Shown here one piece after another: positions 12,236 to 12,462 of a DNA stretch of 64,000 bases. A program made the position numbers and the translations under genes. Position 1 is the stretch's first letter. Every line of letters starts with the position of its first letter. The stretch lies in NCBI RefSeq assembly GCF_013122565.1, contig NZ_CP053258.1, one strand, 5' to 3'. This stretch comes from Escherichia coli (GTDB taxonomy: Bacteria; Pseudomonadota; Gammaproteobacteria; Enterobacterales; Enterobacteriaceae). The notes below the pieces were generated by a model. It searched no databases, was not told the origin of the DNA, and worked only from the letters and a program-made list of their open reading frames with translations.

Positions 12236-12462
12236 AAAAAAAACCAGCAGGTATAATCTGCTGGCGGGTGATTTTACACCAATACTCAGTCACACATGAT
12301 GCAGGCAAGTCAACTTTCAGAATTGCGGTCATCCCACTGCATCAGTTCTTCAAGCATGGTTAATCGTTGTGGGACGCTTAACCAACGCAACCAGCACAAC
12401 TTCGCTGTCGCGGTAAAATAGTGCTGATAAAACTGACGCATGGGGCACCTCCTTGCTTCATC
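12236..12462 (-). ncRNA. sgrS: SgrS dual-function small RNA (boundaries approximate)
   Basis: Minus strand contains the SgrS 3' seed/terminator motif (GUAUUGGUGUAAAAUCACCCGCCAGCAGAUUAUACCUGCUGGUUUUUUUU) and encloses sgrT; divergent from sgrR. Confidence 0.75.
12310..12441 (-). CDS. sgrT: SgrT 43-aa peptide (inhibitor of PtsG glucose uptake) encoded within SgrS
   Basis: ATG at 12439..12441 (rc); MRQFYQHYFTATAKLCWLRWLSVPQRLTMLEELMQWDDRNSES. Confidence 0.75.
   Translation of the reverse strand: MRQFYQHYFTATAKLCWLRWLSVPQRLTMLEELMQWDDRNSES

Follow-up and report, generated by a model that had tools for sequence, protein, structure and literature searches.

A canonical sgrR/sgrS(sgrT)/setA locus of Escherichia coli with the ancestral GGAGG ribosome-binding site and Glu32 in SgrT

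The stretch of Escherichia coli DNA analysed here (64,000 nucleotides, referred to as the window) carries an ordinary SgrS/SgrT locus, the allele of which is already annotated in hundreds of genomes. There is little doubt that it is the canonical glucose-phosphate-stress module of E. coli, sgrR/sgrS(sgrT)/setA, with the ancestral GGAGG and Glu32; by homology, it would be expected to work as in K-12. The dual function of SgrS, the K-12 hairpin (published 2009), the O157:H7 start codon mutation and the divergence between K-12 and CFT073/O157 (88%) were already known; only the observation on Gly32 and the genome-scale frequencies are new here. The features of the locus, with their positions in the window, are the following.

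12236..12462, minus strand: sgrS small RNA, 227 nt (nt 1 = 12462, nt 227 = 12236); RF00534, with 225/227 bases as in K-12 sgrS (b4577)
12442..12452, minus strand: sgrT ribosome-binding region, sgrS nt 11-21, GGAGGUGCCCC (K-12: GGGGGUGCCCC); from the alignment
12310..12441, minus strand: sgrT coding sequence, 43 codons plus TGA (sgrS nt 22-153); from the translation and Pfam PF15894
12346..12348, minus strand: sgrT codon 32, GAA = Glu (K-12 GGA = Gly), with sgrS nt 116 at 12347; from the alignment
12276..12295, minus strand: seed (base-pairing) region, sgrS nt 168-187, with the conserved core CUGAGUAUUGGUG at nt 174-186
12267..12280, minus strand: small stem-loop GGUG-UAAAAU-CACC just 5' of the terminator, nt 183-196; in the MFE and centroid folds
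12236..12265, minus strand: intrinsic terminator, 8-bp stem and 7-nt loop (12265..12243) and U8 tail (12242..12236); from a terminator scan and the fold
12463..12529, no strand given: intergenic region between the divergent sgrR and sgrS, where the SgrR-dependent promoter of sgrS lies; from comparison of the upstream sequences
12530..14188, plus strand: sgrR, activator of sgrS, 552 aa (551 in K-12); Pfam SgrR_N (147.7 bits) and SBP_bac_5
11030..12208, minus strand: setA, encoding a sugar efflux transporter, directly downstream of sgrS; ORF with Pfam MFS_1, 6 substitutions relative to K-12 SetA

SgrS was searched for with cmscan, on positions 9000-16000 and then on the whole window. A match to Rfam RF00534 was obtained on the minus strand at 12236-12462 (232.9 bits, where the gathering score is 37; E=1.7e-66); the alignment spans positions 1-232 of the 232 of the model and is not truncated. 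The predicted fold of the RNA is far more stable than that of shuffled controls (z = -4.9), and its sequence is 100% identical to alleles in many RefSeq E. coli genomes, where the ORF is annotated as sgrT. The first-pass annotation had described a dual-function SgrS at 12236-12462 with an intact embedded sgrT ORF of 43 codons, as known biology. The exact and full-length RF00534 match, the translation, the Pfam SgrT match, the K-12-like synteny and the annotated identical alleles all bear this out.

Translation of sgrT (window 12441..12310) gives MRQFYQHYFTATAKLCWLRWLSVPQRLTMLEELMQWDDRNSES. The frame, the length of which falls within the ~40-57 codons typical of SgrT, opens with the ATG at nt 22, preceded by GGAGG at nt 11-15, and closes with the TGA at nt 151-153, ending before the seed (from nt 168). 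In RefSeq the protein is entered as WP_001248767.1, 'glucose uptake inhibitor SgrT' (the same in strain E2865); it has the C-proximal motif L-x-[E/D]-L-M-Q-W in the form LEELMQW. With Pfam PF15894 (SgrT; cut-off 27) the window peptide scored 50.5 bits, the K-12 allele 49.6 and the O157/B2 type 50.0; in an NCBIfam scan of the same three alleles, no model matched.

The 13-nt pairing core CUGAGUAuUGGUG, complementary to the ptsG RBS region and placed near the 3' end of SgrS, was found at nt 174-186; the core consensus was as published (PMC2760817, section 11). The seed is invariant across 8/8 aligned E. coli alleles, and 98 species-representative genomes of Enterobacteriaceae contain the exact seed 20-mer TGTGTGACTGAGTATTGGTG. 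A duplex of the seed with the K-12 ptsG RBS region (-29..+21) was predicted at -30.5 kcal/mol, only moderately significant since 15/500 shuffled seeds were equally good. K-12 ptsG was used for this computation, since the window does not include the strain's own ptsG, manXYZ, yigL or hfq. A duplexfold of the whole SgrS with ptsG gave an uninterpretable long duplex and was set aside. The terminator is the part of SgrS described as its Hfq-binding module (PMC4021124, a review; legend to Fig. 2), and an extra stem-loop ahead of the terminator has been described in most SgrS homologs (Horler & Vanderpool, PMC2760817).

The gene order sgrR, sgrS(sgrT), setA, followed by leuD and the leu operon, is as in K-12. 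sgrR is divergent from sgrS, the two being 67 nt apart, and SgrR differs from its K-12 counterpart by 13 substitutions and an extra C-terminal Glu. Four consecutive changes in SgrR (residues 392-395, TIKS in K-12 and PTHC in the window) could reflect a patch of recombination or a frameshift that was later compensated. Upstream of sgrS, a stretch of 98 nt matches O157:H7 and APEC O2 in full, and K-12 at every base but one (-51). A simple sigma-70 scan returned no site correctly placed for the sgrS +1, which would be as expected for an activator-dependent promoter; a promoter-like sigma-70 site, with a -10 ending 19 nt upstream of +1, is not the sgrS promoter.

The alleles were compared with those of MG1655 (NC_000913.3; sgrS b4577, 77367-77593; sgrT b4662, 77388-77519). 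Over 227 nt, the two sgrS sequences differ at 2 bases, nt 13 and nt 116, both A in the window and G in K-12. Relative to the annotated K-12 SgrT (MRQFYQHYFTATAKLCWLRWLSVPQRLTMLEGLMQWDDRNSES), residues 1-31 and 33-43 of the window peptide are identical, and the sole change, from Gly32 in K-12 to Glu, lies in the C-terminal third. Differences at a few N-terminal residues, as described in the first-pass annotation, are therefore not present; the two peptides are not strictly identical, one residue being different, but a difference of the kind and in the place described is absent. N-terminal differences of that sort resemble those of Salmonella SgrT (MRQFWLRYFAATEKTSWLAC..., loci L044 and L084), with which the K-12 peptide may have been confused.

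A13 (window 12450) falls within the sgrT ribosome-binding region, where it forms a consensus GGAGG Shine-Dalgarno sequence with a 6-nt spacing to the ATG. In K-12 the GC-rich inverted repeat GGGGGUGCCCC inhibits sgrT translation, as shown genetically (Wadler & Vanderpool, PMC2760806, section 19), and C to A or C to U changes in the 3' arm of the hairpin raise SgrT and permit stress rescue (PMC2760806, section 19). The stem-loop was reported in only 3/15 E. coli strains (Horler & Vanderpool, PMC2760817, section 12). A13 breaks the central G13:C19 pair of this hairpin. The local fold of nt 9-23 was predicted at -0.4 kcal/mol for the window and -6.0 kcal/mol for K-12, that is, weakened by ~5.6 kcal/mol, and the fold of the 5' 30 nt at -6.7 and -12.4 kcal/mol, respectively. 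The forced-structure energy of a hairpin with an A.C mismatch (-2.3) was not meaningful and was not used. In the full-length ensemble the mean unpaired probability of the Shine-Dalgarno region (window/K-12) was 0.32/0.32 over nt 9-16 and 0.385/0.29 over nt 11-15, and in the full-length predicted fold a long-range helix sequesters the sgrT start codon of either allele. Because the local hairpin is weakened, and in view of the published K-12 mutants, we infer that sgrT would be translated more efficiently from the window allele than from that of K-12, although the full-length ensemble shows almost no difference between the alleles.

Nucleotide 116 pairs with U32 in the predicted fold of both alleles, as A-U in the window and G-U in K-12; being paired in both, it would therefore leave the RNA structure unaffected. 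The corresponding residue of SgrT was located by a motif-anchored search of 98 species loci, in 88 of which a recognisable SgrT was found. In these 88 other enterobacterial species, the position equivalent to residue 32 (the residue before LMQW) is Glu in 60, Asp in 28 and Gly in 0. In this comparison, the Gly32 of K-12 stands in place of an otherwise always acidic residue, which is the only, mildly, new point. Overexpressed K-12 SgrT, which carries Gly32, is active (PMC3901232; PMC4021124).

The alleles of the window, O157:H7, APEC O2 and VCSW5 share A13 and Glu32, as do those of Escherichia albertii, E. whittamii, Escherichia sp. E1V33 and a divergent 'E. coli' species representative. The GGGGGTGCCCC repeat was found in 0/88 of the species with a recognisable SgrT, and the Rfam RF00534 consensus has A at both nt 13 and nt 116. 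Because the outgroups, the 88 species and the Rfam consensus side with the window, it is the window that has kept the ancestral base at nt 13 and nt 116, and K-12 that is derived at these two positions.

Allele frequencies were obtained from 5426 complete E. coli genomes, in 5399 of which sgrS is present. SNP-centred 41-mers were used in megablast searches, in which a hit is possible only with a matching central base. A13 was found in 3856 genomes and G13 in 1429 (26% of the 5426), and G116, encoding Gly32, in 2785 (about 51%). A 61-mer covering nt 105-165, with Glu32 and the K-12-type 3' part, matched exactly in 454 genomes and with 1-3 mismatches in 2781. On the assumption that genomes with G13 also carry G116, as in every example seen, four haplotypes can be listed.

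Haplotype 1: A13/Glu32, divergent 3' part, no setA; ~2150 genomes
Haplotype 2 (that of the window): A13/Glu32, K-12-type 3' part, setA; ~450 genomes
Haplotype 3: A13/Gly32, for example O104:H4; ~1350 genomes
Haplotype 4: G13/Gly32, as K-12; ~1430 genomes

These appear to form a stepwise series, with a probable single origin, in which the window allele would be the basal haplotype of the setA-linked class of E. coli. Other natural variants of sgrT were seen: a frameshifted pseudogene in strain HS-02, an A11E substitution in SgrT on the K-12 haplotype in strain PK8276, and the known change of the start codon from ATG to ATT in O157:H7, where PGAP still annotates an intact sgrT.

Two forms of sgrS occur in E. 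coli: in 3193 genomes the gene is at least 99% identical to the window allele, and in 2152 it lies at 80-90% (a class of ~89%). The divergence begins abruptly at about nt 132, inside sgrT (nt 132-227, window 12236-12331), and spares the seed; the C-terminus of SgrT is DDRNSES in the window and K-12 type and EGSHSDY in the divergent class. In members of the latter (O157:H7, APEC O2 and VCSW5), leuD directly follows sgrS and setA is missing. setA is found beside sgrS in 71/73 species loci in Enterobacteriaceae, being absent from E. whittamii and Escherichia sp. E1V33, and its position next to sgrS is the ancestral enterobacterial state. This pattern points to an old recombination or deletion with an edge within the sRNA gene.

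By homology with K-12, the accumulation of sugar-phosphates would lead SgrR to activate transcription of sgrS. The resulting 227-nt Hfq-dependent RNA would, through the 3' seed (nt 168-187), repress the ptsG and manXYZ mRNAs and stabilise the yigL mRNA, and translation of its 5' part would yield the 43-residue SgrT, expected to inhibit the PtsG (EIICB-Glc) transporter. With the ancestral GGAGG free of the K-12 inhibitory hairpin, and with the acidic Glu32 kept, sgrT would be translated more efficiently than in K-12. Induction of sgrS by SgrR under glucose-phosphate stress, Hfq-dependent repression of ptsG and manXYZ, and stabilisation of the yigL mRNA have been described (PMC4021124), as has the post-translational inhibition of PtsG (EIICB-Glc) by SgrT in K-12 and Salmonella (PMC3901232; PMC4021124). 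Sequence comparison establishes the identity, anatomy and synteny of the window locus, the allele frequencies and the ancestral states; its expression and regulation are proposed by homology, and the higher SgrT output from the local hairpin and the published mutants.

Both differences from K-12 might instead be functionally neutral, the two alleles being equivalent variants with the same SgrT output and activity. The nearly equal accessibility of the Shine-Dalgarno sequence in the full-length ensemble agrees with this, as do the tolerance of Gly32 in about half of the E. coli genomes (2785), the activity of K-12 SgrT on overexpression (PMC3901232; PMC4021124) and Pfam scores only 0.9 bits apart. 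However, weakening of the same hairpin in K-12 raises SgrT and rescues growth (PMC2760806), A13 removes its central G:C pair at a cost of ~5.6 kcal/mol, and an acidic residue at position 32 in 88/88 other species argues for constraint; we regard neutrality as somewhat unlikely. It is far harder to see sgrT as an untranslated relic, in a locus where base pairing alone matters, as proposed for O157:H7 and Yersinia. Here the ATG, the GGAGG at 6-nt spacing, the 43-codon frame and LEELMQW are all intact, and the ORF is conserved in 88/98 species loci, so that this reading is improbable even with the loss of sgrT in some lineages (ATG to ATT in O157:H7, frameshift in HS-02) and the small contribution of native SgrT in K-12 (PMC2760806) in its favour.

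That the window SgrT is an N-terminally diverged variant, or a private or erroneous sequence variant, is scarcely credible: its residues 1-31 are those of K-12, nt 105-165 occur exactly in 454 complete genomes and the same RNA in many, and an assembly from an independent sequencing run is 100% identical over 7659 bp. The reading of the locus as the canonical module with the ancestral GGAGG and Glu32 remains the best explanation. A tentative extension of it, doubtful at present, is that K-12 sgrT is doubly derived (the G13 hairpin and Gly32) and possibly attenuated, and that window-like alleles make more, and perhaps more active, SgrT. If so, the small part played by natively expressed SgrT, as seen from K-12, would not apply to most E. 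coli. K-12 is in any case unrepresentative for sgrT: only about one E. coli genome in four has the hairpin, and Gly32 replaces an acidic residue. Care is therefore needed in carrying over to other strains the K-12 conclusion that SgrT matters little.

The strain background was characterized with two segments of the window (3000-14182 and 11000-21000). The best identity among the 5426 complete E. coli genomes was 98.7% over 11.2 kb collinear, and none reached 99%; K-12 gives 97-98.7%, and Escherichia species other than E. coli give 88-96%. In a very large collection of public contigs, only 5 carry the exact SgrR protein, and the Logan assembly SRR11451224 is 100% identical over 7659 bp. The window comes from a rarely sampled E. 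coli lineage, though its sgrS is a common B1-type allele.

Compared with K-12, three insertions are present in the window and a 13-kb cai-fix-yaaU region is missing. The first insertion (14183-15726, ~1.5 kb) lies exactly at the sgrR stop, before the thiB TPP riboswitch, and adds Glu552 to SgrR. It carries a 278-aa pentapeptide-repeat protein (14684..15520, minus strand), and is present in two related contigs (L110 and L111), disrupted in a third (L112) and absent from E2865, the sgrS of which is identical. The second (19184-20460, 1277 bp), between thiQ and yabI, encodes a 326-aa IS110-family transposase (DEDD_Tnp_IS110 and Transposase_20), assigned to the IS621 family in the annotation of matching genomes; its left end of ~190 nt is non-coding (19184-19374). 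IS621 is an element known for bridge-RNA-guided recombination. At 42050-43491, an islet of ~1.4 kb takes the place of the ~90-bp K-12 apaH-folA intergenic region. It holds genes for a DUF4291 protein (42096-42695, plus strand), a 155-aa ORF without a Pfam match (42731-43198, plus strand) and a 59-aa C-terminal fragment of a CcdA antitoxin (43297..43476, minus strand), with no ccdB. In other E. coli the chromosomal ccdO157 system occupies this site, so that the islet looks like a decayed toxin-antitoxin locus.

The K-12 region of 13.1 kb that is absent (caiF-caiEDCBAT-fixABCX-yaaU, 34031-47143) corresponds to 46658-47028 of the window, where the carB-kefF interval holds only a gene for a 77-aa lipoprotein of the YgdI/YgdR family (46658..46891, minus strand). 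This junction occurs in only 2/5426 complete E. coli genomes, at ~94.5-94.8% identity. Between araA and araD, an 82-bp unit (25836-25917) matches adjacent tandem repeats in K-12 (66649-66730 and flanking alignment ends), which suggests that an intergenic repeat, probably REP/BIME-like, varies in copy number. Three other RNA elements scored above their Rfam gathering scores.

6107-6256, plus strand: leucine operon leader, 145.8 bits
15762-15861, plus strand: TPP riboswitch upstream of thiB (the sroA region in K-12), 65.8 bits
51457-51509, minus strand: ES003 sRNA, 87.4 bits

Among known systems, SgrS/SgrT of K-12 MG1655 has the same lengths (227 nt and 43 aa) and synteny, with 225/227 nt and 42/43 aa identical, and shares the seed, the terminator and the C-terminus DDRNSES with the window; the window differs by A13 (no GGGGGUGCCCC hairpin), by Glu32 and by one base in the promoter region (-51). 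In B1-type E. coli (O26, O111 and O103 STEC; SgrT WP_001248767.1) sgrS is identical over 227/227 nt and shows no difference, whereas the flanks of the window are at most 98.7% identical to those of any complete E. coli genome. In the O157:H7/CFT073/B2 type (WP_001248768.1) the 5' 131 nt are nearly identical, including A13 and Glu32, and the seed is identical, but the sequence diverges from nt 132, with the EGSHSDY C-terminus, another terminator loop, ~89% identity overall and no setA; O157:H7 has, besides, an ATT start codon in sgrT (PMC2760817). SgrS/SgrT of Salmonella enterica resembles that of the window in its dual function, the seed 20-mer, the absence of an RBS hairpin, the acidic residue before LMQW and setA downstream (PMC2760806); its SgrT differs in being 40 aa long, with another N-terminal half (MRQFWLRYFAATEKTSWLAC...) and another C-terminus.
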